64,000 nt of DNA from an uncultured Lentisphaerales bacterium. GTDB taxonomy: Bacteria; Verrucomicrobiota; Lentisphaeria; JABSQK01; CAJWLW01. Made by a program: the position numbers and the translations under genes. The DNA is taken from contig CAYWQM010000005.1 in NCBI GenBank assembly GCA_964460215.1, positions 16,211 through 80,210 on the forward strand, given 5' to 3'. The notes under the pieces were generated by a model. That model made no database searches. It was not told where the DNA came from and worked only from the letters and a program-made list of their open reading frames with translations. This document shows, in pieces, positions 1 through 64,000 of the stretch (positions are counted from its first letter, which is position 1; every line of letters begins with the position of its first letter).

Positions 1-20
1 ATCTCAACGAGAAAGGCGAG

Positions 21-2546
21 TTGCAGTGGGCAAGCGAGTGCCGGGACCCGGCGGTGCATATTTTTCGGGTTGCCAACGGCTACGAACTCTCTGTCGACAA
101 CGTTGACGTGTCCATCAATGACCACCCCCTGATGGCCAATGCCGAGTTGGCCGACCTGCGCAAAGCCAGGACGGCTGTCCGCACCGTGCTCGTTAGCGCC
201 GTGACCGAGCTGCTCGCCAAGCTGCCGGCTGATATTCGGGTCGAAAGCAGCCTGATTTACAGCCGGGACTACTGTGACGCGCTCAATCGCCTCATCGATC
301 ATTATTCCGCGCTCAACGTCGTCGATGAACAATTACAACGACTTGACCGTGACGATTATGATGATTTCTCCGCCTTCGAAGTGACTGTCAGGAAGGCTGT
401 GGAATTCGAGGATTATTCTCGAACTGACTCTGTCGAGCGGCTTCGCAAAAGTCTTGTTCGCAAACGCGATCTACTGGATAACAAAGCCCTGCCATCGATC
501 TCATGCTCGTATACGCGGCTTCCAACCGAGCAGCTGGATGCGATAGCTGTTGCGATCAGCGATCTTGAAACGCGTTGTGCCAAAGAGGCCGAACAAGTGA
601 GGGGCGAACTTGGAAAAATGGTGGACTCCCTTGGGGAGGACAGCTCGCTTGACGAACTGCTGACGCACCTGCGGGCATCGGAGACCGACTATGACAATGC
701 CCGGCAGCTCCAGTGCGGTGATTTTATCTCGATCGGGTCATTCACTGTTGAAGTGAATCGTCTTACCGGCATGTCCCTGGTCTCTCGCCGTCAGAATCCT
801 TTTGACGTTGACATGACCTATTTCGATGTCGACGAAATTTTCAAGCCGTTGATGGTGAGCTTCGTAAGCACACGAATGGAACAGGCCGACAGCGTCGATG
901 TTGAGCAGGCCGAGAAGGCGATAAGCCAGGAGATTCTCGACAGTATTAAGGAGATACGGGACACTTTCCGTTTCGATAGTCGAATTATCGACCTGGAATC
1001 GGCAACAGAAGATAATCCACTGGTTCTCTGCCGGGCTGGTGATTTCGGCCATACGGCCTATTACGTCATCAGTGGCGAATTGTCAGTGATTATGGATCGT
1101 GCCGCGCTTCAGCTCCAGTCGTCGGACGGCCGTCATACGGTCAAGAAGAGAGGATTATCCAAGATCATTGCCCAGCTTTGGCAGAACAAGAGCCAGGTAA
1201 GGGAGTGGCGATCATCCGTGAATAAGGGGAAGGGGGACGCCGGCGATGCCGGCGAGTATATGTTCCTGCAGGATTCCGATGCCGTCTTTGACGTCCGCGA
1301 AGGCGGTCGATATGAGTTGGTGAATACCATCTGCGCCGGCGAGCTTGTCGGTGAGCTTTCGGCGCTCGGCCGCACACCGCGGACGGCAACGATTTTGGCC
1401 AACAAAAGCGCCCGGGTGCTGGAGATTCGCTGGCAGGGACTTCGTGATCTTCGCAGCAGCAGCAGCATCTTCAAAAACTTGACCGATGCCGCCTATCGCG
1501 AGCGTGCTCTCGACATGCATCTGCGCCGTATCGACGCCTTCAGTAAGCTTGATGATGCCGATCGCCAGCGCCTCGCCGAAAAGGTCGAGCTCAGAACGAT
1601 CGGTGACTTCAACTGGCACATGTCTTTTATCGACCTCATGAAGGAAGGCTCTGATGCCCGTGACGAGATTGAGCCCATCGTCGCTGCGGAGGGACAATAT
1701 CCGGATGCGTTGATTCTCATACGCTCCGGTTTCGCCCGGGTTTCCCGTGAATATCATCATGGGCAGCGCACCGTCAGCTATCTCGGCAAGGGCGCGTATT
1801 TCGGCCTCGACGAACTCCTCCATAATTATCAGAATCCAGATGATGAAATCTGCTTTCGCCATAGCCTGAGGGCGATCGGTTACGTCGACGTGATCTTTAT
1901 CCCCCGTGAGGTTGTTTATGAGTACATCTTTGATAAAGATGCCAGCTTTAAGCCGCAGGCTGCCGATACGCACAGCGAACTGCGCACCTTCGACATCAAC
2001 GTTGATCAGATGGTCGTCGAGGAGTTAGTCGCTCAGCGCAGTATCAACGGCACGGCTGCAATGCTCATCGACATGGATCGCTGTACGCGCTGCGATGACT
2101 GTGTCCGGGGCTGTTCGAATGCGCATGATGGCAATCCGCGTTTCATTCGCCACGGCCCGATTGTTGACAACTTCATGATTGCCAACGCCTGTATGCACTG
2201 CAATGACCCGGTCTGCATGATCGGTTGCCCGACCGGGGCGATCCAGCGGAATATGGGCGGCGGCGAGGTCATTATTAACGATCTCACCTGTATCGGCTGT
2301 TCTGTGTGCGCCAACAGCTGTCCGTATGACAACATCCGGATGGTGAATGTGATCGACGATGAGGACAGTTATGAGTATGTGTCTGACCCCGCGACAGAGC
2401 GACCGGTCCAGAAGGCCACTAAATGCGACCTCTGTGTCGACCAATTGGGTGGCCCGGCCTGTGTCAATGCCTGTCCCCACGACGCCCTGAAGCGTGTCAA
2501 TCTGAGCGATGTCCCGTCACTCGAAGCCTGGCTGAATGAACGATGA
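21..2546 (+). CDS. Multidomain redox/sensor protein: ~330-aa coiled-coil-rich N-terminal region of unknown function, two cyclic-nucleotide-binding (CAP_ED) domains, C-terminal 4x[4Fe-4S] ferredoxin module (DmsB/NrfC/HybA-like)
   Basis: cNMP phosphate-binding cassettes are visible in the translation: GDFGHTAYYVISGELSV...GELVGELSALGRTPRTATILA and ALILIRSGFARVS...GKGAYFGLDEL. Four Cys clusters follow: CTRCDDCVRGC, CMHCNDPVCMIGCP, CIGCSVCANSCP, CDLCVDQLGGPACVNACP. The stop overlaps the next gene's start (ATGA at 2543-2546). The 5' end may be truncated or the start uncertain because the ORF begins near the window edge. Confidence 0.7.
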   Translation: MQWASECRDPAVHIFRVANGYELSVDNVDVSINDHPLMANAELADLRKARTAVRTVLVSAVTELLAKLPADIRVESSLIYSRDYCDALNRLIDHYSALNVVDEQLQRLDRDDYDDFSAFEVTVRKAVEFEDYSRTDSVERLRKSLVRKRDLLDNKALPSISCSYTRLPTEQLDAIAVAISDLETRCAKEAEQVRGELGKMVDSLGEDSSLDELLTHLRASETDYDNARQLQCGDFISIGSFTVEVNRLTGMSLVSRRQNPFDVDMTYFDVDEIFKPLMVSFVSTRMEQADSVDVEQAEKAISQEILDSIKEIRDTFRFDSRIIDLESATEDNPLVLCRAGDFGHTAYYVISGELSVIMDRAALQLQSSDGRHTVKKRGLSKIIAQLWQNKSQVREWRSSVNKGKGDAGDAGEYMFLQDSDAVFDVREGGRYELVNTICAGELVGELSALGRTPRTATILANKSARVLEIRWQGLRDLRSSSSIFKNLTDAAYRERALDMHLRRIDAFSKLDDADRQRLAEKVELRTIGDFNWHMSFIDLMKEGSDARDEIEPIVAAEGQYPDALILIRSGFARVSREYHHGQRTVSYLGKGAYFGLDELLHNYQNPDDEICFRHSLRAIGYVDVIFIPREVVYEYIFDKDASFKPQAADTHSELRTFDINVDQMVVEELVAQRSINGTAAMLIDMDRCTRCDDCVRGCSNAHDGNPRFIRHGPIVDNFMIANACMHCNDPVCMIGCPTGAIQRNMGGGEVIINDLTCIGCSVCANSCPYDNIRMVNVIDDEDSYEYVSDPATERPVQKATKCDLCVDQLGGPACVNACPHDALKRVNLSDVPSLEAWLNER

Positions 2547-3361
2547 CGCTCCACAAGCGGCGGCGCCGGAACATCATATTATTCTCTGTCGTCAGTCTGC
2601 TGACCATCTGGATCAGCTTCCTCTGCGACCGCAATCATACCGATATCCGCCACTTCAGCGGTTGGCTGATGTTCGCTCTGGTCGTTTTTCTCGCCGCTTT
2701 TAATCTGCGTAAACGCCTGAGCTTTCTGCCCATCCTGCGAGCGGCTACATGGCTGCAACTGCATATTTATCTGGGCCTGTTCTGCGGCCTGATCTTTGTC
2801 ATACACGTTGGTGTTGGGTTGCCCAATGGTCCTTTGGAAATAACCTTGTCGCTCCTATTCCTTCTTGTGTTTGTAAGTGGGATTGTCGGGCTCGCCCTCA
2901 GCCGGATCTTACCGCGTCGCCTCACCAATCAGGGTGAGGAAATTATTTTTGAGCGGATGCCGATCTACCGTCGCCAACTCAGGGACAAGGCAGAGGAGCT
3001 GGTCCTGTCGTCATTGACGTCCAGTCGATCCAAGATGCTTGCGGAGTTCTATAGCGAAGAGCTGGCAGTGTTTTTTGTTGCACCGTCTTATCTGCTCTAT
3101 CACCTGTTCATGGGGCAGCGACCGTTGAATCGGATTCTGGAAAAAATCGATAATCAGAAACGCTATTGCAATGACTCCGAGTGTGAACTGATCGAGCAGC
3201 TTCGCGAATTAGTAGTCAAGACGTACGAACTTGATCGCAGCCAATATTTGCAGGGGCTCCTGAAGGTTTGGCTGTTTATCCACATTCCTGCCACCTTCGC
3301 GCTGTTCGCTTTCATTGTCCTGCATGTGATCCTCATCCACGCATATGTGGGGTCAGGCTGA
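2543..3361 (+). CDS. Polytopic membrane protein (~5 TM) with conserved intramembrane His residues; putative heme-b/quinone-interacting anchor (DUF4405-like guess)
   Basis: Hydrophobic segments LFSVVSLLTIWISF, WLMFALVVFLAAF, LHIYLGLFCGLIFVIHVGV, ITLSLLFLLVFVSGIVGLAL and WLFIHIPATFALFAFIVLHVILIHAYV contain His. Start is coupled to the upstream stop; its own stop (TGA 3359-3361) overlaps the next ATG (TGATG). Confidence 0.5.
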   Translation: MTLHKRRRRNIILFSVVSLLTIWISFLCDRNHTDIRHFSGWLMFALVVFLAAFNLRKRLSFLPILRAATWLQLHIYLGLFCGLIFVIHVGVGLPNGPLEITLSLLFLLVFVSGIVGLALSRILPRRLTNQGEEIIFERMPIYRRQLRDKAEELVLSSLTSSRSKMLAEFYSEELAVFFVAPSYLLYHLFMGQRPLNRILEKIDNQKRYCNDSECELIEQLRELVVKTYELDRSQYLQGLLKVWLFIHIPATFALFAFIVLHVILIHAYVGSG

Positions 3362-5760
3362 TGCAATTGCAGGAATTCCGCCATGATCAGAGCAGCTATG
3401 AGCGACCCGGCCAGAAATGGGTCTGCGGCCGACTGGCAGACGGCCGGCCATGCAGCTGCGGTCCGAAACCCAATGGCCGATGCAGCCAGTCGGATAATCC
3501 ATGCAAGCCACAGCTGAGCCTTCGCTGTAAGCGTAATATGCTGGCCCTGTTTGTCTTTCTCGGCAGTTGGGTGATTGTCGGCGTGGCGCTGTTTCTGCAA
3601 AATGAAACGGATGTATACATCTCGCCGGGTGAACTGAGCTTCCATCACGGGATAGTTCGCGACGAGGACGGGAAGACGAATTGCGGAGCCTGTCATGACA
3701 TGAACGCCGATCATGGTTGGCTGAACGCCGCGGTGTCGCCAAAAACCGCCTTGGACCACAGCCGGAAATGTCTGGATTGTCATTTTCTTGACAAGTCTGA
3801 CGATTTGCTTAAGCCGCATGGCCTTGCCAGCGGGCGTGGATTTTCCGCTGCGATCAAGGAGAAATTTGATGTGGATGTGGCGTGTAGCAAATGTCACGTT
3901 GAGCATAAGGGGTTCAATGCTCCGGTCACCGTGCTGAGCGATGCGCAGTGCCAGTCCTGCCACGAAAAACAGTTCGATGGCTTCAATCAGGGGCACCCGG
4001 AGTTTACCCTGTACCCCTACGCCAATCAGGTCAGCGTCAGGTTCGACCACCGACAGCATCTGGACGTCAAGTCAAAGGAGATGAAGGCGATCGGCGGCAA
4101 ATGCAGCCATTGCCACGTCCCGTCTGCGTCCGGGCGAATGATGCAACACAGGCCTTTTAAGGAGACTTGTGCTGCTTGTCATCTCAACCCGAATCTATTT
4201 AACAAGTCTTCGGCACAACTCACCCTCCTCAAGCTCAACCCACCCAGCGCCTCCGATGCGGCAGATATCACGCCGTTGATGCGGCTTTTCTCTCCGGAAT
4301 TGAATCGTCTTGCAGAGAGTGAAAGCGCCGATCCTGTCAGTGTCCATATGGCGACTCGACGCTTCCTCCGTCAGTTGCAGCTGGGGTTGCCGCTGGTCGA
4401 ATCCCAGTCTGGCCCGGTACGATCTATCTTTGAACGCCTGTCTGCCGACACGGTAAACGAAACGATGGGGGCTGAGGAGCTTGACCGCAGCCTGTTCTAC
4501 TATGATTATGCCAAAGACACTGAACAGGGTAAGGCTTGGATATACTGGCTGCTGGCCTCCCGCTTAACCGACAAAGACATCAATGCTGTTGAAGAACGGC
4601 TTGTGCAGCGCTTCGTGGATGTGAACAGTGGGGGCCTGAGCGGGGAATTCGAGTTCTTCAAGCTGCTGGACGCGGAGAATTCTCTGCATGATCTCGTCAC
4701 CGCCGCCGTGGCCTCCGGCAAGCTGGCAGCCTACACGAAGGGGGTGATCGCTGCCGATGATCCCGAAATTGAGGCGATTGTCAACTATCTGAAGTCTGAC
4801 CAGATGAAGATGCATATTGCCGAGATCGTAAAATCTATTCCACCGAATTTAAAACTATCGACCCCCGAGAAGGCGCTCAAGAAGCAATTGGACAAGATCG
4901 CAAAAAAACTCAGTCCCGAGGAGAAGGCGCTCCCTGTCCGTGACCGGCTTTGCAAGCTCATCCTGGAGGACCGGGCAAGGGGAAAGTTCAAAAAATACAG
5001 TTCCTCGTTGTTGAAGAAAAAGGACAAAAACCTTTACACCTACCTCTCCAAGACCAAGGCTGCGGACCTGGAGAAGACAAAGGTGGATGATTGCCTGAAG
5101 GCCATCGACTCGAGCCTCTCGAAAATCGCCAACCTCCTGGCAATCGAGGGCGGTGCGGCGTCGAAGTTGCCGGTCATGCCGAAGGGGTTCAAGCCCCGCT
5201 GGGAGCCGCCGCCAGCCGCGACGGTCCGCCATCGATTGGAGGTGGCATCGATAAGCAATTGGCGCTTTGAGGCGTCCAATGATTCTTTGATCTACACCAG
5301 CACTGGCCATGCGGATCCGGTCTTCAAGGCGGTACATGAACTGGCGGCGCAATTGAGTGACAAGGCATCTCCAAAACTCCTTGCGGAGTTGTCACGAGGA
5401 GGGCAGTGCCGGTTCTGTCATCAGCCGGAAATAAGCTTTCGCACGGAGCCGCGGCAGGTGCAGATGAAGTGGGTAACGGCCAAGCCCAAGCGGTTGCAGA
5501 AATTCAATCACGAGCGCCACGCCGGCCTTGATTGCCGAACCTGTCACCAGTTCAAGGAAGAAAATAGCGCTGTTGCCACTCTTTTCCCCGGCTACAAGGG
5601 AAGCTTCGAGCCGATTAGTCGGTCGCTGTGCGCGAGGTGCCATCAACCCCAGAAGGTTGGCGACGGCTGTCTCAAGTGTCATAACTACCATCCCATGTCA
5701 CTGGCCCATGACAAGCAGCAGCACGAATACCTCCTGCGCCTCTTCCGCCGTCAGAAATAA
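3361..5760 (+). CDS. Decaheme c-type cytochrome, N-terminal Cys-rich cytosolic tail plus single TM anchor
   Basis: Ten CXXCH motifs: CGACH, CLDCH, CSKCH, CQSCH, CSHCH, CAACH in the N-terminal block and CRFCH, CRTCH, CARCH, CLKCH in the C-terminal block. TM helix MLALFVFLGSWVIVGVALFL is preceded by CGRLADGRPCSCGPKPNGRCSQSDNPC. A ~400-aa heme-free, Lys-rich middle region is present. Start chosen at the ATG at 3361 (ORF track opens at 3268 but that 5' part overlaps the upstream gene). Confidence 0.8.
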   Translation: MQLQEFRHDQSSYERPGQKWVCGRLADGRPCSCGPKPNGRCSQSDNPCKPQLSLRCKRNMLALFVFLGSWVIVGVALFLQNETDVYISPGELSFHHGIVRDEDGKTNCGACHDMNADHGWLNAAVSPKTALDHSRKCLDCHFLDKSDDLLKPHGLASGRGFSAAIKEKFDVDVACSKCHVEHKGFNAPVTVLSDAQCQSCHEKQFDGFNQGHPEFTLYPYANQVSVRFDHRQHLDVKSKEMKAIGGKCSHCHVPSASGRMMQHRPFKETCAACHLNPNLFNKSSAQLTLLKLNPPSASDAADITPLMRLFSPELNRLAESESADPVSVHMATRRFLRQLQLGLPLVESQSGPVRSIFERLSADTVNETMGAEELDRSLFYYDYAKDTEQGKAWIYWLLASRLTDKDINAVEERLVQRFVDVNSGGLSGEFEFFKLLDAENSLHDLVTAAVASGKLAAYTKGVIAADDPEIEAIVNYLKSDQMKMHIAEIVKSIPPNLKLSTPEKALKKQLDKIAKKLSPEEKALPVRDRLCKLILEDRARGKFKKYSSSLLKKKDKNLYTYLSKTKAADLEKTKVDDCLKAIDSSLSKIANLLAIEGGAASKLPVMPKGFKPRWEPPPAATVRHRLEVASISNWRFEASNDSLIYTSTGHADPVFKAVHELAAQLSDKASPKLLAELSRGGQCRFCHQPEISFRTEPRQVQMKWVTAKPKRLQKFNHERHAGLDCRTCHQFKEENSAVATLFPGYKGSFEPISRSLCARCHQPQKVGDGCLKCHNYHPMSLAHDKQQHEYLLRLFRRQK

Positions 5761-6031
5761 TCGAAACCTGTAGCCATATCACCATAAATTTCCCGTAGTA
5801 ATTTGTTCGTGATGTTCCCCCACATCGCGGTTGCCCGCGTGTGAATCAGCAGGGCGCCTTGATCTATCATCGGTCTCACCGTAAACGCATCTGCGGCCCG
5901 CCAACGTGCCGGGTGCCGTCCCGGTGGTCGGCATATCACCCGTTAACTTTATGTTGGTCAATAAAAAGAAGAGGCGTAGATTAGAAAAGCATGTCCCTTT
6001 GCTTTATGGCATATGACAATGACAGGGTGAC

Positions 6032-6841
6032 GTGACAATGAAACTTACAGCAGAAGAAGTAGCCAAATTTGAAGACGAAGGATATTTATTTTTTCCCAAC
6101 AAGTTTTCCAGTGCCGAGGCGAAGGTCCTGAAAAATGCCGCGGGTGATGTCTATGCTATGGACCGCGAGGAAGTCTGGAGGGAAAGTTCCGGTGTCGCCC
6201 GCACGGCATTCGCGGCCCACACGTACCATGAAGCCTTCATGCGCCTTGGCTGCCACCCGAGATTGATCGGGCCTGTAAGCCAGCTGCTCGACGGGCAGGT
6301 CTACATACACCAGTATAAAGTCAATGCCAAAGCCGCCTTCGACGGTGACGTCTGGCAATGGCATCAGGACTATGGCACGTGGAAACGCGACGATGACATG
6401 CCGGAACCCAGGGCCATGAATATCGCTGTATTCCTTGACGATGTGACCGCGGCCAATGGGCCCCTTTTGTTTATTCCAGGCAGCCACAAACTCGGCGTCA
6501 TAGATGCAGGGCACGACCTTGAAACCACCAGCTATCCGCTGTGGACACTGGATCGGGAAACAGTAACTGAACTGGCGGAACGGGGTGGCTGTGTCGCGCC
6601 AACTGGTCCGGCAGGCAGTGTCCTCCTGTTTTCATCCCTGATGGTTCACGCAAGCCCTCCAAACATCAGCCCATTTGGACGGATCATCGTTTATCTTTCC
6701 CTGTGTCAGGTTGATAATCACATCCGGCAATTCAACCGCGAGGAATGGATTGCACACCGTGATTTCACACCAATCGAGCCCCTGGCCGATGATTGCCTCG
6801 AAGAACTGATAGGTGACGGTGGACAAGGGGCAGCGGAGTAG
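6032..6841 (+). CDS. Phytanoyl-CoA dioxygenase (PhyH) family Fe(II)/2-oxoglutarate dioxygenase, ectoine-hydroxylase-like
   Basis: VWQWHQDYGTWKRDDDMPEP...NGPLLFIPGSHK resembles the EctD/PhyH signature (W-H-x-D ... GPL..IPGSHK). Confidence 0.75.
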   Translation: MTMKLTAEEVAKFEDEGYLFFPNKFSSAEAKVLKNAAGDVYAMDREEVWRESSGVARTAFAAHTYHEAFMRLGCHPRLIGPVSQLLDGQVYIHQYKVNAKAAFDGDVWQWHQDYGTWKRDDDMPEPRAMNIAVFLDDVTAANGPLLFIPGSHKLGVIDAGHDLETTSYPLWTLDRETVTELAERGGCVAPTGPAGSVLLFSSLMVHASPPNISPFGRIIVYLSLCQVDNHIRQFNREEWIAHRDFTPIEPLADDCLEELIGDGGQGAAE

Positions 6842-7023
6842 CCGGAACAGGGCGAGCTTGCGGAGTTGTTTGATTGAAGAGGCAACTAAAATTGTATTAC
6901 GGGCAATGACAACCGGCTCGATTGATCGAACCCGAAAGCTCTCCCGCCACCGCGGGACCGTTCCGGGCTGTTCATCTCACCGTTGGTCCATGAGGCTTTG
7001 TCAGAGGACACAGGAGTAAGGCG

Positions 7024-7440
7024 ATGAAAGGAATTAAGGCCGCGGCAATCCAGTTTACTCACGCGCCTGGGGACAAAGCGTTTAACTGGGGGAGGATTCG
7101 ATCGTTCGTTAGGGAGGCCGCTGCGCAAGGCGTGGACCTCATTGTTTTTCCGGAGATGTGCATAACCGGCTACTGGCATGTGAGGAAGCTCTCCAGGGCA
7201 GAGGTCGAGTCCCTGGCCGAGTCTGTTCCGGCCGGCCTCTCGACGCAGGAACTGCTTACACTCGCAGCGGCCAATAACATGACCATTGGCGCCGGACTCA
7301 TCGAGATCACCGATGCCGGAGAACTGTTCTCTCATGCGTGGCCAAAGAAAGGTAGCGGAGAGAAGCACCCCTTCTGGATACCATGCACAAACCCTCTTGC
7401 GAAAGAAGAGATCCTCTCTAACCTTCGGGCATTCTCATGA
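7024..7440 (+). pseudogene. N-terminal fragment of a carbon-nitrogen hydrolase (nitrilase superfamily); homology ends at ~7329 (..ITDAGELF)
   Basis: AAIQFTHAPGDKAFNW...DLIVFPEMCITGY...TIGAGLIEITDAGELF matches the N-terminal half of CN_hydrolase including the catalytic-Glu FPE motif. Downstream residues (SHAWPKKGSGEKHPFW...) have no family similarity. Its stop overlaps the start of the inserted transporter gene (ATGA at 7437-7440). Confidence 0.55.
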
Positions 7441-8306
7441 TCGTTAACGTTCTTCTGCCACTCATTCTCGCCTTTATCATGTTCTCTCTTGGGCTGGGAC
7501 TAAAAAAGGCTGATTTTACCCGCGTGGTGCAATTCCCTACCGCCTTTGGAGTAGGCCTATGCAACCAGCTATTCTTGCTTCCTGTCATTGCCTTTGCCTT
7601 AGTAAAAGCCTTTAACCTTAGCGGTGAACTGGCAGTGGGCATGATGATTCTTTCCTTCTGTCCAGGAGGCGTGACCACCAATGTTTTGGCCCGCCTTTCT
7701 AAAGGAAATGTCCCACTTTCCATTTCCATGACCGCCTTCACCAGTCTTGCGTCGATTCTGACCGTTCCTTTTTTAGTAGCCCTGAGCGTTCGGCACTTTT
7801 TAGGGGCTGAAGCACTTGCTGTGAATGTTGGCGAGCTAGGCATCAAAATGTTCCTTATCACCGCCGTTCCCGTTCTCCTGGGGATGCTCGTCACGAAGAT
7901 GGCACCGGGCTTCACCAAAACAGCGTCTAAACCAATTTCCTTAATCGCCATTGGTCTCTTCTGTCTCATGATTGTCGCAGCGCTTGCTAAGAACTGGGAC
8001 GTCGTTGCAAAGCATTTCCCAACCCTTGGTCCTGCCCTCATCACGCTCAATATCACCCTGTTAGCGGTCGGTTTTCTTAGCTCGCGCCTCGCCAAGCTCG
8101 ATACCAAAGATGCCTCCACGATCAGCATCGAATCTGGAATCCAGAATGGGACTCTTGGTATCGCTGTGGGCGCTCTTATCGCCGCTGGAACGGCCGAAAC
8201 CCTTCCTCCAACAACCGTTCCTTCAGCCGTTTACGGAGTCTCCATGTACTTAGTTTCTATTCCCTTTGTCATCTGGAGAGCGAAAACAAACCGCTCTAGC
8301 GATTAG
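7437..8306 (+). CDS. Bile acid:sodium symporter (BASS/SBF) family transporter
   Basis: ~9 TM helices; LSFCPGGVTTNVLARLSKGNV is characteristic of BASS. GC (~50%) and codon usage differ from the flanks (~62%). Confidence 0.75.
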   Translation: MIVNVLLPLILAFIMFSLGLGLKKADFTRVVQFPTAFGVGLCNQLFLLPVIAFALVKAFNLSGELAVGMMILSFCPGGVTTNVLARLSKGNVPLSISMTAFTSLASILTVPFLVALSVRHFLGAEALAVNVGELGIKMFLITAVPVLLGMLVTKMAPGFTKTASKPISLIAIGLFCLMIVAALAKNWDVVAKHFPTLGPALITLNITLLAVGFLSSRLAKLDTKDASTISIESGIQNGTLGIAVGALIAAGTAETLPPTTVPSAVYGVSMYLVSIPFVIWRAKTNRSSD

Positions 8307-8480
8307 AGAAACTTGCGACTTGGCAACTTCCAAGGGAATGAAATTCGCCCTCTACCTTCAATACAGATCTCCCGTCAGTACCGTGGGCCTGCTCAAGGAG
8401 GTCAAGGGAATTGGTTCCTCTGGTGCTATTTTCCTTCCGCACCACGGAATCAAAGGTGACGAGCACGACAATCTCGAGAT

Positions 8481-9161
8481 AACACCTATGTCGTTGCCAT
8501 GCCGGACGGTCGTGTTGAAAGCCATCGCAAGCTCCACTGTTTCATCAGCGAGCATATGAAGTCTGGCGATGCGTACACGGTGTTCGATATCCCGCAGGGT
8601 GCCCGCGTAGGTGTTCTCATCTGTTTTGACAATAACATTGGTGAGAATGTGCGAATAACGGCGCTGAAGGGCGCGGAGATCCTGTTGGCGCCGCACCAGA
8701 CAGGCGGGTGTGATTTTCCGAGTCCCCGTTGCATGGGTAAGATCGACCCGCAGTTGTGGGAAAACCGAGACCGTGATGCCGCCGCGATCGAGGCTGAATT
8801 TCGTGGGCCCAAGGGGCGAGAATGGTTGATGCATTGGCTCCCGGCTCGAGCTCATGACAATGGGCTGTTCCTGGTCTACAGCAATGGTGTGGGTGTTGAT
8901 GACGACGAGGTGCGTACGGGCAACGCCATGATCCTCGACCCCTACGGCGACATTCTGTCCGAGACGTGGGTGCCGCGGGATGCAATGGCCGTGGCGGACC
9001 TTGATCCCGATTGTCTCGACATGTGCACGGGTCAACGTTGGTTGACAACTCGCCGGCCGGAACTGTATGGGCCGCTCATTGAGCGATCCGGCAAGGAGAA
9101 AGATACGCGCACGGTGCGCTTTGCCAGGAAACAATCACCCGACCAGGCTCCGTCAGGCTAA
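8481..9161 (+). pseudogene. C-terminal fragment of the same carbon-nitrogen hydrolase (first ATG at 8499; homology starts ~8481 right after an in-frame stop)
   Basis: NTYVVAMPDGRVESHRKLHCF...GARVGVLICFDNNIGE...LFLVYSNGVGVDDDEVRTGNAMILDPYGDIL matches the CN_hydrolase C-terminal half (YRKLH Lys, catalytic Cys in ICFD). It continues exactly where the 7024 fragment stops (..GELF | NTYVV..). Confidence 0.55.
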
Positions 9162-9300
9162 CAAGCGGCCCGAGCCGACGGTGGGGACGCTGCAGGATAT
9201 TGCCGCCTGCGAGGCAGCCTGAAAAAACAGTCGCTGAGGAGCCGGGTGGCACTGAAAGAAGCCTGGCACTGCTGAGCTGCTCGGAGCAGCCGCAGTTCAT

Positions 9301-61740: not shown

Positions 61741-62271
61741 ATGGCGTACAAGGTATTTATCTTTACATTGTTAATGATCACCTGGGTTGTTCTCTCAGGG
61801 CAGTTCGACGCTTTTCACTTGGCTCTGGGCCTGATCTCGTGTGGCCTGGTGACGTGGATGTCATCGGACTTGTTATTCCAAACCCGCGAGCAGTCGGTTG
61901 GAGAGAGGGTCTGTGAAGGTTGGAGGTTGGCTTTTTATTTTTTGTGGATGATCTGGCAGATTTTTCTGGCGAACATTGCGGTTCTGCGACTCGCTTTGTC
62001 GCCTGATGCGATGAAGAAAATCAATCCGAGCATTGTTCACTTCAAGACCGGACTGAAATCCGACTTCGCCAAATTTCTGCTCGCCAACTCGATTACCCTA
62101 ACCCCTGGAACGGTGACGATTAAAATCATGGGGGATGACTTTTATGTGCATGCAATTAATGATGCGGCGGCGGCGGGATTAGATGGTGAAATGGAACGCC
62201 GCATTGCCCGCATCTATCGTTCTGAGCGGGATGCTCGGGGTGGCAACTCGGACGGAAAGGAGTCTGCCTGA
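61741..62271 (+). CDS. mrpE: Na+/H+ antiporter subunit E (MrpE/MnhE; MbhA-like)
   Basis: ..LANSITLTPGTVTI.. (TLTPGT signature) and 2 TM helices. Confidence 0.8.
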   Translation: MAYKVFIFTLLMITWVVLSGQFDAFHLALGLISCGLVTWMSSDLLFQTREQSVGERVCEGWRLAFYFLWMIWQIFLANIAVLRLALSPDAMKKINPSIVHFKTGLKSDFAKFLLANSITLTPGTVTIKIMGDDFYVHAINDAAAAGLDGEMERRIARIYRSERDARGGNSDGKESA

Positions 62272-62272
62272 T

Positions 62273-62584
62273 ATGATCACTTTTTTCATGTGGGCGGGAA
62301 TTGCCTTATTGATCATGATGATCCCGATTTTTTATCGGATGAATATTGGGCCGACGGCAATTGATCGCATTGTCGCGGTCAATGTGATTGGTACTAAAAC
62401 AGCTATACTACTTGTTTTTATAGGCACGATTTTTCCCGGACAGAGGATCGGGATGTTCGTGGATTTTGCCTTGGCGTACGGGCTGTTGAATTTCATCGGC
62501 TCACTGGCAGCAGCGAGATTTTTCCATCGTTCCAAAGCGACGGGAGGAAAAATTGATGTTGCGGGAGACGCAAGGAAATCCTGA
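62273..62584 (+). CDS. mrpF: Monovalent cation/H+ antiporter subunit F (MrpF/MnhF; MbhB-like)
   Basis: ..GPTAIDRIVAVNVIGTKTAILLV.. is an MrpF motif. Start at MITFFMW (ORF track opens 62183). Confidence 0.75.
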   Translation: MITFFMWAGIALLIMMIPIFYRMNIGPTAIDRIVAVNVIGTKTAILLVFIGTIFPGQRIGMFVDFALAYGLLNFIGSLAAARFFHRSKATGGKIDVAGDARKS

Positions 62585-62587
62585 GTT

Positions 62588-62953
62588 ATGATTATCGATA
62601 CAATCAGCATAATTCTCATCGTAGCGGGCCTGGTGTTTTTCTTTGGCTCGGTTGTCGGAGTGATTCGCTTCCCTGACTTTTACACACGCATGCATGCTGC
62701 GGGCAAGGGAGATACTTTGTCGAGTTTGCTCGTGGTGATGGGCTTTGCGGTTTATCATTTCGGGCAAGTACATTGGACAAATTTTGTATGGGCGGATTTG
62801 CTGGTCATAGTCAAACTGCTCGCTATTTGCGCTTTCATCATGCTGACGTCACCGACGGCTACGCATGCGCTGATGGATGCCGGGTATGAGGACGGAATCG
62901 AACCGTTGACGCGCAAGGAAGGGAATGCCTTGTCTCAAAACGAAAGCGAGTAA
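62588..62953 (+). CDS. mrpG: Monovalent cation/H+ antiporter subunit G (MrpG/MnhG; MbhC-like)
   Basis: VIRFPDFYTRMHAAGKGDTLSSLL is the classic MnhG motif. Confidence 0.85.
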   Translation: MIIDTISIILIVAGLVFFFGSVVGVIRFPDFYTRMHAAGKGDTLSSLLVVMGFAVYHFGQVHWTNFVWADLLVIVKLLAICAFIMLTSPTATHALMDAGYEDGIEPLTRKEGNALSQNESE

Positions 62954-62974
62954 TAAGAGAATATTTTTCACAGC

Positions 62975-63220
62975 ATGATCTGGCAGTTCGACATCATTAT
63001 TCTTCTTTTCCTCGTGGTCACCGCAGTGATCTCGTTACGGGTGAAAGATTTACTGGCAGCATCAATGATCTTCGGGACTTACAGTTTTCTCATCTGTCTG
63101 CTGTGGGCGGGGATGGGGGCCGTGGATGTGGCATTTACCGAAGCCGCGGTGGGGGCGGGTATCAGCGCGGTTATTCTGATCGCCACCGTTTACAATACTA
63201 AAAGAAAATCATCGGATTGA
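62975..63220 (+). CDS. Small membrane subunit, MbhD/DUF4040-like (MrpB N-terminal-domain-like)
   Basis: 81 aa, 2-3 TM helices. Sits between mrpG and mrpB, as MbhD does in Mbh-type modules. Confidence 0.5.
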   Translation: MIWQFDIIILLFLVVTAVISLRVKDLLAASMIFGTYSFLICLLWAGMGAVDVAFTEAAVGAGISAVILIATVYNTKRKSSD

Positions 63221-63224
63221 ATTT

Positions 63225-63986
63225 ATGAAGTGGGTTGGACTTATCGCAGTTTTGTTTACCGGAGGGCTTTTGCTTTCGGCTGTCGATGATTTCCCTTATT
63301 GGGGGAATGCAGAGTCGCCGGCTAATGACAGTGTGGTGTCGCATTATTACATTGAAAATACGATGAGGGATACCGGGGTGCCGAACATGGTGACCGCGGT
63401 GCTGGCGGATTATCGTGGCTTCGACACCATGCTTGAAACGGTTGTTGTCTTGATAGCGGTCATTGCGATTATGGCCATCCTGCGAGTCATGAATCAGACG
63501 CCGGGTGGAGCGAAGCCTTCGGCGCCTCATGCGATTGGTGACCATCATGACATTATTGTTGGTACTACCTGTCGCTTATTGGTTCCGGTGTTGCAGCTGT
63601 TTGCTCTATATGTGATCGCGCATGGCCATCACAGCCCGGGCGGAGGATTTCAGGGCGGAGTCATTCTGGGGACGAGTTTCATTTTGTTGGCATTGGCAAA
63701 AGGTTTGAATCCCGTTCTGGAGCGATTACCGGAAAAACGTTACGTGAAATTGGCTTTTGTTGGCGTTGCCATCTACGCGGGTTTCGGAGTGATGTGTCAG
63801 TTTCTGGGAGAGAACTTTCTCGACTACGGTGTGTTGCATGTGTTGATGCCCGCAAGCGACGCAGCTCAGGCTCGATCCCACAGTATGCTGGGCGTGGAAA
63901 TCGGAGTAGCGTTCACTGTGTCAGCGATCATGTTTGCAATTTACGCCAATCTGTCTTCGAAAGGTGAACTGGAGGGAGGTCTGTAA
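63225..63986 (+). CDS. mrpB: Na+/H+ antiporter subunit B (MrpB/MnhB; MbhE/F-like)
   Basis: NMVTAVLADYRGFDTMLE and HGHHSPGGGFQGG are MnhB signatures. Confidence 0.85.
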   Translation: MKWVGLIAVLFTGGLLLSAVDDFPYWGNAESPANDSVVSHYYIENTMRDTGVPNMVTAVLADYRGFDTMLETVVVLIAVIAIMAILRVMNQTPGGAKPSAPHAIGDHHDIIVGTTCRLLVPVLQLFALYVIAHGHHSPGGGFQGGVILGTSFILLALAKGLNPVLERLPEKRYVKLAFVGVAIYAGFGVMCQFLGENFLDYGVLHVLMPASDAAQARSHSMLGVEIGVAFTVSAIMFAIYANLSSKGELEGGL

Positions 63987-64000
63987 TTATGGGTGCTTTT

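Follow-up and report, generated by a model that had tools for sequence, protein, structure and literature searches.

The first 5760 positions of the DNA stretch analysed here (64,000 nucleotides of contig CAYWQM010000005.1 from an uncultured Lentisphaerales bacterium, hereafter the window) carry three genes which were identified as ptdE, ptdF and ptdG, the 3′ end of the seven-gene Ptd cluster, also described as PCC4 subgroup II. Ptd is a known but uncharacterised system, of which the window holds the 3′ half only, and the copy found here is a lineage variant in which PtdE is extended and PtdG carries a long insert. Without drawing on quinones, the system seems to connect NAD(P)H in the cytoplasm with the surface of the cell. 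In the reading that we favour, to which a probability of about 0.5 is given, Ptd would be a quinone-bypassing outward route from NAD(P)H through iron-sulfur (FeS) clusters and two b haems to multihaem cytochromes, with PtdE as a link controlled by cyclic nucleotides.

Gene organization and identity of the cluster

Three open reading frames (ORFs), all on the forward strand, occupied window positions 1–5760. The stop codon of the first gene overlapped the start of the second (ATGA, 2543–2546), and the stop of the second overlapped the start of the third (TGATG, 3359–3363), exactly as a preliminary description of this region had reported. The start that it assigned to the first gene, at nucleotide 21, was an artefact, as the TTG at 21 is not the start codon and the gene is cut by the window edge. 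Frame 3 has no in-frame stop ahead of nucleotide 21, and a database protein with 100% identity to the gene product (P0001) is 873 amino acids (aa) long and begins 26 residues earlier. Thus, ptdE (1–2546, frame 3) is truncated at its 5′ end, with approximately 26 codons missing. The ptdF gene (2543–3361) encodes a 272-aa inner-membrane protein of the PCC4 type, and ptdG (3361–5760) encodes a 799-aa membrane-anchored decahaem cytochrome c.

The name ptdABCDEFG was given to the cluster in marine Alphaproteobacteria (UBA11136) of oxygen-deficient zones (ODZs), where it is transcribed (bioRxiv 10.1101/2023.11.21.568154). The same preprint described PtdE as a cyclic-nucleotide-binding protein with 4Fe-4S clusters and credited it with two of them; it likened PtdF to ferric reductases and regarded PtdG as a decahaem cytochrome of the periplasm. 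The cluster had been named PCC4 by He et al. 2017 (PMC5566968), and that paper lists for subgroup II a porin, 4-, 5- and 10-haem cytochromes, an inner-membrane protein with five transmembrane (TM) helices, a pfam13247 Fe-S gene upstream of the 5-TM gene, and a redox gene. It defines the PCC4 inner-membrane protein by SGXXG on TM4 and WX3HX13H on TM3 and TM5, and gives marine Zeta-, Gamma- and Alphaproteobacteria and Planctomycetes as hosts of subgroup II. Hyphomicrobium and Mariprofundus are among the carriers that it names. The gene content and order found here agree with both accounts. PtdF showed all three PCC4 features (five TM helices, SGxxG on TM4, and WX3HX13H on TM3 and TM5), a Fer4_11 gene lay directly 5′ of ptdF and the decahaem gene directly 3′, and PtdE contained a cyclic-nucleotide-binding (CNB) domain. 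The combination of domains, which the preliminary description did not know from characterised complexes, had been published in 2017 as PCC4 subgroup II and in 2023/24 as ptdABCDEFG, the latter noting the cyclic nucleotide monophosphate (cNMP) domain of PtdE.

The three genes had also been described as a self-contained module; they are instead the 3′ half of a larger cluster. In a 91% identical relative (L004), genes A-B-C-D-E-F-G were colinear, and in a 99% identical relative (L006), C-D-E-F-G could be followed up to the contig end, so the window begins inside the fifth gene of seven. The other four members are a pentahaem cytochrome (PtdA), a porin (PtdB), a reductase with FAD, NAD(P)H and [2Fe-2S] domains (PtdC), and a tetrahaem cytochrome (PtdD). 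PtdB is a secreted protein ending in ...IKF, and such a C-terminal Phe is typical of outer-membrane barrels; the beta-barrel gene always adjoined ptdA. The membrane-tethered PtdC matched Pfam FAD_binding_6, NAD_binding_1 and Fer2 and contained the motifs RxYS, GGxGxxP and Cx4Cx2C...C. PtdA gave weak Pfam matches to Cytochrom_C552 and NapC/NirT.

Domain architecture of PtdE

Assessment of the PtdE sequence revealed two CNB domains followed by a four-cluster ferredoxin domain. Pfam cNMP_binding matched in two stretches (E 9.7e-21, 74 bits against a cut-off of 27.5), and Fer4_11 (E 2.2e-10), Fer4_7, Fer4_9 and Fer4_10 were all over their cut-offs. NCBIfam gave partial matches to DmsB, DsrO, HydN, HybA and NrfC (E 1e-16 to 1e-11) and to FdhB, all of them far under the equivalog cut-offs. 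In the alignment of 24 homologues (A2), 16 Cys in four CxxCxxCxxxC(P)-type groups were invariant (694/697/700/704, 730/733/738/742, 763/766/769/773 and 808/811/820/824 in the 847-aa numbering), from which four cubane sites are predicted. This domain (2052–2507) is of the DmsB/NrfC/HycB type, and its nearest solved structures were HycB3 (7qv7_A, 1.7e-15) and HycB4 of the hydrogen-dependent CO2 reductase, ArrB (6cz7_B), HycB, and the NrfC-named 2vpw_B.

CNB domain A (978–1442) has a canonical phosphate-binding cassette, GELVGELSALGRTPRTATILA, with the family pattern GELxGELxALGRTPRTAT, in which G, E, A, L, R and R are invariant; it also matched the NCBIfam CRP model (E 1.1e-5). CNB domain B (1545–1937) is the better Pfam match (residues 553–636 of the 841-aa ORF), yet its cassette is degenerate and the Arg is absent from some members. 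The CNB region as a whole weakly matched the PKA regulatory subunit (3of1). The beta-sandwich of CNB-A also holds an unusual conserved insertion of about 70 aa (1098–1310) with the motif AQLWxN..PExR, the structure of which is modelled at low confidence.

The common form of PtdE is about 570 aa long and consists of CNB-CNB-FeS. The window protein and its Lentisphaerales relatives add an N-terminal extension of about 280 aa in the full protein (3–770 in the window), which matched no Pfam family and is helical by low-confidence prediction. In a protein of another lineage (P0007), two forkhead-associated (FHA) domains occupy the corresponding place. The conserved motif RPQRWDxPF, a mark of the N-terminus in the 570-aa form, reads RRQNPFDVD and is internal in the window protein (774–806; alignment A2). 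No helix-turn-helix (HTH) family was found in the Pfam scan at E <= 1, and the C-terminus is the FeS domain. Because no HTH was found, the possibility that PtdE is an ordinary Crp/Fnr transcription factor was rejected.

The N-terminus of PtdE showed neither a signal peptide nor a twin-arginine (Tat) motif. A metagenomic representative of 843 aa (P0155) was found to be a natural single-chain fusion, in which the C-terminus of PtdE (CNB and FeS domains) is joined to the N-in end of PtdF. The same type of fusion has been reported in Oceanospirillum beijerinckii DSM 7166 (PMC5566968). Judged from these sequence features, a cytoplasmic location of PtdE is supported.

Membrane protein PtdF and decahaem cytochrome PtdG

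PtdF belongs to a family of about 272 aa without annotation, represented by 33 word-indexed homologues and by 538 representative clusters at E <= 1e-30. Among 22 homologues, H74, H88, H247 and H261 were invariant, as were W70, G113, G116 and W243. These residues form the TM3 motif W70-x3-H74-x13-H88 (2750–2806), the TM4 motif S112-G-x-x-G116 (2876–2890) and the TM5 motif W243-x3-H247-x13-H261 (3269–3325), and the four His are the predicted axial ligands of two b haems (H74/H247 and H88/H261). The AlphaFold2 model (predicted local distance difference test score, pLDDT, 82) contained five long membrane helices with a helical insert of about 110 residues (125–238) between TM4 and TM5. Positive charges were found at the N-terminus, in the TM2–TM3 loop and after TM4, which by the positive-inside rule would place the N-terminus and the TM4–TM5 insert in the cytoplasm. 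A Foldseek search of the model against the PDB returned nothing significant (best E 0.4), the PtdF profile found no meaningful match among PDB sequences, and there was no Pfam Ferric_reduct match.

PtdG contained 10 CXXCH motifs, the number found throughout its family. Across 70 homologues the haems always fell into a group of six and a group of four (6+4). The insert that separates the groups is free of haem, and the motif spacing from haem 6 to haem 7 was 413 aa here and 100–818 aa in relatives. In the window, motifs 1–6 lie at 3682–4182, the insert at 4183–5406, and the cytochrome c7/c3-like motifs 7–10 at 5407–5682. In sequence, PtdG is therefore not a simple continuous haem wire of the MtrA kind. 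Pfam Cytochrome_C7 and Paired_CXXCH were over threshold. The only PDB match was a weak one to 6r2q chain A (E 5e-4), which we take to be the MtrA decahaem cytochrome of the MtrCAB entry; the database label differs. Membership in the MtrA/DmsE decahaem family (TIGR03508, soluble proteins of about 300–350 aa) was rejected on the basis of 17.4 bits against a cut-off of 192, the length of 799 aa, the TM anchor and the 6+4 layout.

A signal-anchor TM helix could be read from the sequence at residues 60–79 (3538–3597). The segment ahead of it (residues 1–58; 3361–3534), predicted to be cytoplasmic, is Cys-rich, with seven Cys here and one or two CxxGPxPxGxC..CxP repeats throughout the family. This head matched no Pfam family and is mentioned neither in the preliminary description nor in the accessible parts of the published Ptd and PCC4 descriptions. 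A role in metal binding or in docking to PtdE or PtdF is possible.

Much of what the preliminary description had proposed for the three products was borne out, namely two CNB domains and a four-cluster ferredoxin in the first without the HTH of a Crp/Fnr factor, a polytopic membrane protein with conserved intramembrane His in the second, and a membrane-anchored decahaem c-type cytochrome in the third. The domain families expected in profile searches were recovered for PtdE (cNMP and Fer4) and PtdG (multihaem cytochrome), but PtdF fell into an unannotated family. The proposed layout from cytosolic FeS protein through the membrane to a periplasmic multihaem cytochrome fits the PtdE N-terminus, the predicted N-in orientation of PtdF and the fusion in P0155.

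Conservation and gene neighbourhood

A scan of one genome per species, covering approximately 186,000 species genomes, revealed PtdE in at least 583 species of more than eight phyla. Eighty PtdE loci were fetched, and all ORFs of 86 loci (L001–L086) were labelled using hidden Markov models and phmmer. The fetched loci came from Planctomycetota, Verrucomicrobiota, Lentisphaerales, Acidobacteriota, Myxococcota, Nitrospinota, Alpha-, Beta- and Zetaproteobacteria and SAR324, and included two complete genomes (Planctomycetales bacterium ZRK34 and Ca. Uabimicrobium amorphum). Genes E, F and G were adjacent in all 63 independent species loci with at least 3.5 kb of downstream sequence, a linkage far beyond chance, and the neighbourhood is conserved across many phyla. 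A tetrahaem gene lay directly upstream of ptdE in 61 of 73 loci, and all seven Ptd families occurred within 10 kb on either side in 20 of 30.

Other gene families were conserved alongside the cluster in 12 of the 86 loci at most; hence no molybdopterin catalytic subunit travels with it. The reported absence of such a subunit and of an NrfD-type anchor beside the trio in the window also held. Class III adenylate/guanylate cyclase genes directly flanked the cluster in 11 of the 86 loci, in several phyla (L001, 3439–5193, reverse strand; L050, 4012–5889, reverse strand; L061, 14712–16943, forward strand; and eight further loci). Their forms included FHA-cyclase and receiver-cyclase-metallophosphoesterase proteins. 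In L001 an MBL/PDEase_II-like gene followed ptdG, and FHA-cyclase and Ser/Thr-kinase genes were found near some loci. No phosphodiesterase, other Ptd gene or other multihaem ORF was found in a search of the 64-kb window.

Proposed electron route and alternative explanations

The favoured reading can be put as a chain. PtdC, an FNR-like FAD/NAD(P)H reductase that is tethered to the membrane and bears a [2Fe-2S] domain at its C-terminus, would oxidise NAD(P)H, and the cytoplasmic PtdE would relay the electrons through its four predicted [4Fe-4S] clusters. The two putative bis-His b haems of PtdF would then carry them across the membrane to the ten c haems of PtdG, from which they may pass to tetrahaem PtdD and finally to the outer membrane, where the porin PtdB and pentahaem PtdA would receive them. 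Electrons that leave NAD(P)H (about -320 mV) for the outside move down the redox gradient as well as down the membrane potential, and inward flow would have to climb both; the outward direction is favoured for this reason, on established bioenergetics. Through the tandem CNB domains, transfer by the FeS link would depend on cAMP or cGMP. This reading is supported by the canonical and invariant CNB-A cassette, the cyclases at 11 of 86 loci and the fusion of PtdE to PtdF. A quinone-bypassing route dissipates membrane potential, so gating would be expected, which offers a rationale for the CNB domains.

A more specific version of this proposal is tentative. Ptd could possibly be a second-messenger-gated, quinone-independent "bacterial split NOX", in which cAMP or cGMP on CNB-A switches the four-cluster bridge that leads from an NAD(P)H flavoprotein to a dihaem-b/multihaem wire. 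If so, hundreds of mostly aerobic aquatic species would be able to dump or deliver cytoplasmic reducing power at the surface on demand, for example to acquire iron by reduction, to produce extracellular superoxide or to keep their redox state in balance. PtdE would then be the first respiratory-type FeS subunit under direct allosteric cyclic-nucleotide control, which would be a new regulatory principle for electron-transport chains. Ptd may also explain extracellular reductive chemistry in bacteria without Mtr- or Omc-type systems.

Several points weigh against the gated outward route. The preprint terms the function of Ptd "completely unknown" (bioRxiv 10.1101/2023.11.21.568154), and a literature search for functional work on Ptd or PCC4 returned descriptive accounts and passing mention only. 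PMC5566968 models the opposite flow from an extracellular donor to the quinone pool, and describes a PCC4 subgroup I without the FeS gene, which means that some lineages can do without PtdE. A CNB fold may also accept a different ligand or no ligand at all, and CNB-B is degenerate. A search for a cyclase in the 64-kb window found none. Genes ptdA–D lie outside the window, and their presence in this genome is assumed from the 91–99% identical relatives. The full-length AlphaFold2 model of PtdE had a mean pLDDT of 54, with the FeS domain and the N-terminal extension unresolved, and was left out of the assessment of folds and domain contacts.

The alternatives differ from the favoured route in the direction, the end point or the role of PtdE. 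In the inward model of PMC5566968, the porin and multihaem cytochromes obtain electrons outside the cell, from Fe(II), Mn(II) or a different donor, and pass them from PtdG through PtdF to the quinone pool, with PtdE and PtdC as accessory or regulatory proteins. We consider this unlikely, as the carriers are mostly heterotrophic Planctomycetota, Verrucomicrobiota, Alphaproteobacteria and similar bacteria, which are not known Fe oxidisers, and PtdF is without a known quinone site. Moreover, on bioenergetic grounds the transfer of electrons from Fe(II) to quinone against the membrane potential would be expected to have hardly any driving force, if any. The cytoplasmic four-cluster FeS protein and the NAD(P)H/FAD reductase, both tightly linked to PtdF, would also be superfluous in a route that reduces quinone. 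The chain could also run outward but end at PtdA as an NrfA-family pentahaem enzyme that reduces soluble nitrite, NO, hydroxylamine, sulfite or peroxide, with no extracellular mineral involved. According to the preprint, PtdA falls into the COG that also contains NrfA, and the cluster occurs in nitrite oxidisers and nod-transcribing ODZ bacteria (bioRxiv 10.1101/2023.11.21.568154). Three Nitrospinota loci were present in our set (L019, L065 and L084), and the weak Cytochrom_C552 and NapC/NirT matches of PtdA point the same way. Yet the matches to NrfA-type models were below threshold, and the barrel gene that always stands beside ptdA encodes a product with a C-terminal Phe, as in porin-cytochrome conduits, which makes a catalytic PtdA rather unlikely as the end point.

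PtdE might alternatively be a redox- and cNMP-sensing regulator of the state of the cytochrome chain, acting for instance on a partner through its N-terminal extension or FHA domains, while the bulk of the electrons bypasses it. This would suit the variable N-terminal modules (the extension of about 280 aa here, the two FHA domains in P0007), the FHA-cyclase and Ser/Thr-kinase genes near some loci, and a PCC4 subgroup I that works without PtdE (PMC5566968). We regard it as very improbable, since four in-line cubane sites of the DmsB/HycB type are the architecture of a wire and not of a sensor, the Pfam scan revealed no output domain (HTH, kinase or GGDEF), and the common form of the protein is merely CNB-CNB-FeS. 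The strict translational coupling and the natural fusion to PtdF further argue for PtdE as a structural subunit.

Adjacent region of the window

The region downstream of ptdG differed from that of the 99% identical relative. In L006 (8103–8420), ptdG is followed almost directly by an RraA-like gene, whereas the corresponding part of the window (5761–9300) is about 3.3 kb longer, which marks an indel between two nearly identical genomes. The additional sequence holds a PhyH gene together with split hydrolase and SBF genes. Here, a carbon-nitrogen hydrolase gene is apparently split into an N-terminal fragment covering profile positions 1–88 and a C-terminal one covering 105–248, and a complete gene of the SBF (bile acid:Na+ symporter) family lies between them, its ATG overlapping the stop of the first fragment (7024–7440, 7437–8306 and 8499–9161, forward strand). 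At the far end of the window (62001–64000), the GC content was 0.495 and the GC skew 0.168, compared to about 0.58 and 0.03 elsewhere.

Comparison with known systems

The closest described system is the ptdABCDEFG cluster of UBA11136, with which the window shares PtdE, PtdF and PtdG in the same order, genes A–D being upstream in close relatives of the window copy. The differences are the host, which is here a Lentisphaeria-like member of the PVC (Planctomycetes-Verrucomicrobia-Chlamydiae) group, the additional PtdE extension of about 280 aa, and the long PtdG insert (413-aa spacing). For this window the value of the finding is modest, as it adds a member of the Lentisphaeria type in which PtdE and PtdG are extended. 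The comparison further refines the published accounts in the number of predicted PtdE FeS clusters (four rather than two), in the 6+4 haem layout and the cytoplasmic Cys-rich head of PtdG, both of which are conserved, in the recurrence of cyclase genes beside the cluster, and in the natural PtdE–PtdF fusion. The accessible part of the PCC4 subgroup II account (PMC5566968) does not discuss cNMP domains.

PtdE shares the four Cys groups (16 Cys) with ferredoxins of the DmsB/NrfC/PsrB/HycB type. Those proteins have a molybdopterin or other catalytic partner and/or an NrfD anchor, and their periplasmic members are exported by the Tat system, whereas no such gene was seen beside the trio in the window, no other family was conserved around the 86 loci, and the N-terminus of PtdE bears no Tat motif. 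An assignment to ACIII/Nrf/Psr-type modules, which the preliminary description had used for comparison, was thus rejected, since an NrfD-type anchor, a conserved catalytic subunit and a Tat signal are all lacking.

The Tmc, Hmc and DsrMKJOP complexes of sulfate reducers follow the same logic as Ptd, in that an FeS protein of the cytoplasm is combined with a b cytochrome in the membrane and a multihaem cytochrome c in the periplasm. Their subunits are non-homologous to those of Ptd, being HdrD-type CCG FeS proteins, NarI-type b cytochromes and periplasmic four-cluster proteins, and to our knowledge they include neither a cNMP domain nor a porin. MtrCAB and MtoAB resemble Ptd in combining a decahaem cytochrome, a porin and a further multihaem cytochrome. 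In contrast, PtdG is membrane-anchored with a 6+4 layout, and the inner-membrane entry of Ptd would be by FeS and haem b instead of CymA and quinol.

At the level of the membrane subunit, PtdF showed no detectable sequence similarity to the superoxide oxidase CybB of E. coli (5oc0), HyaC or FdnI, from which it also differs in its 110-aa cytoplasmic helical insert and in having no known quinone site. The ferric reductase domain (PF01794) has six TM helices with His pairs on TM3 and TM5, whereas PtdF has five predicted helices and no Pfam match to that family. Compared to NOX/FRE/STEAP proteins and MsrQ-Fre, the components of Ptd are split into separate subunits, the acceptor would be a multihaem c chain, and a four-cluster FeS protein would be interposed between the flavoprotein and the haems.

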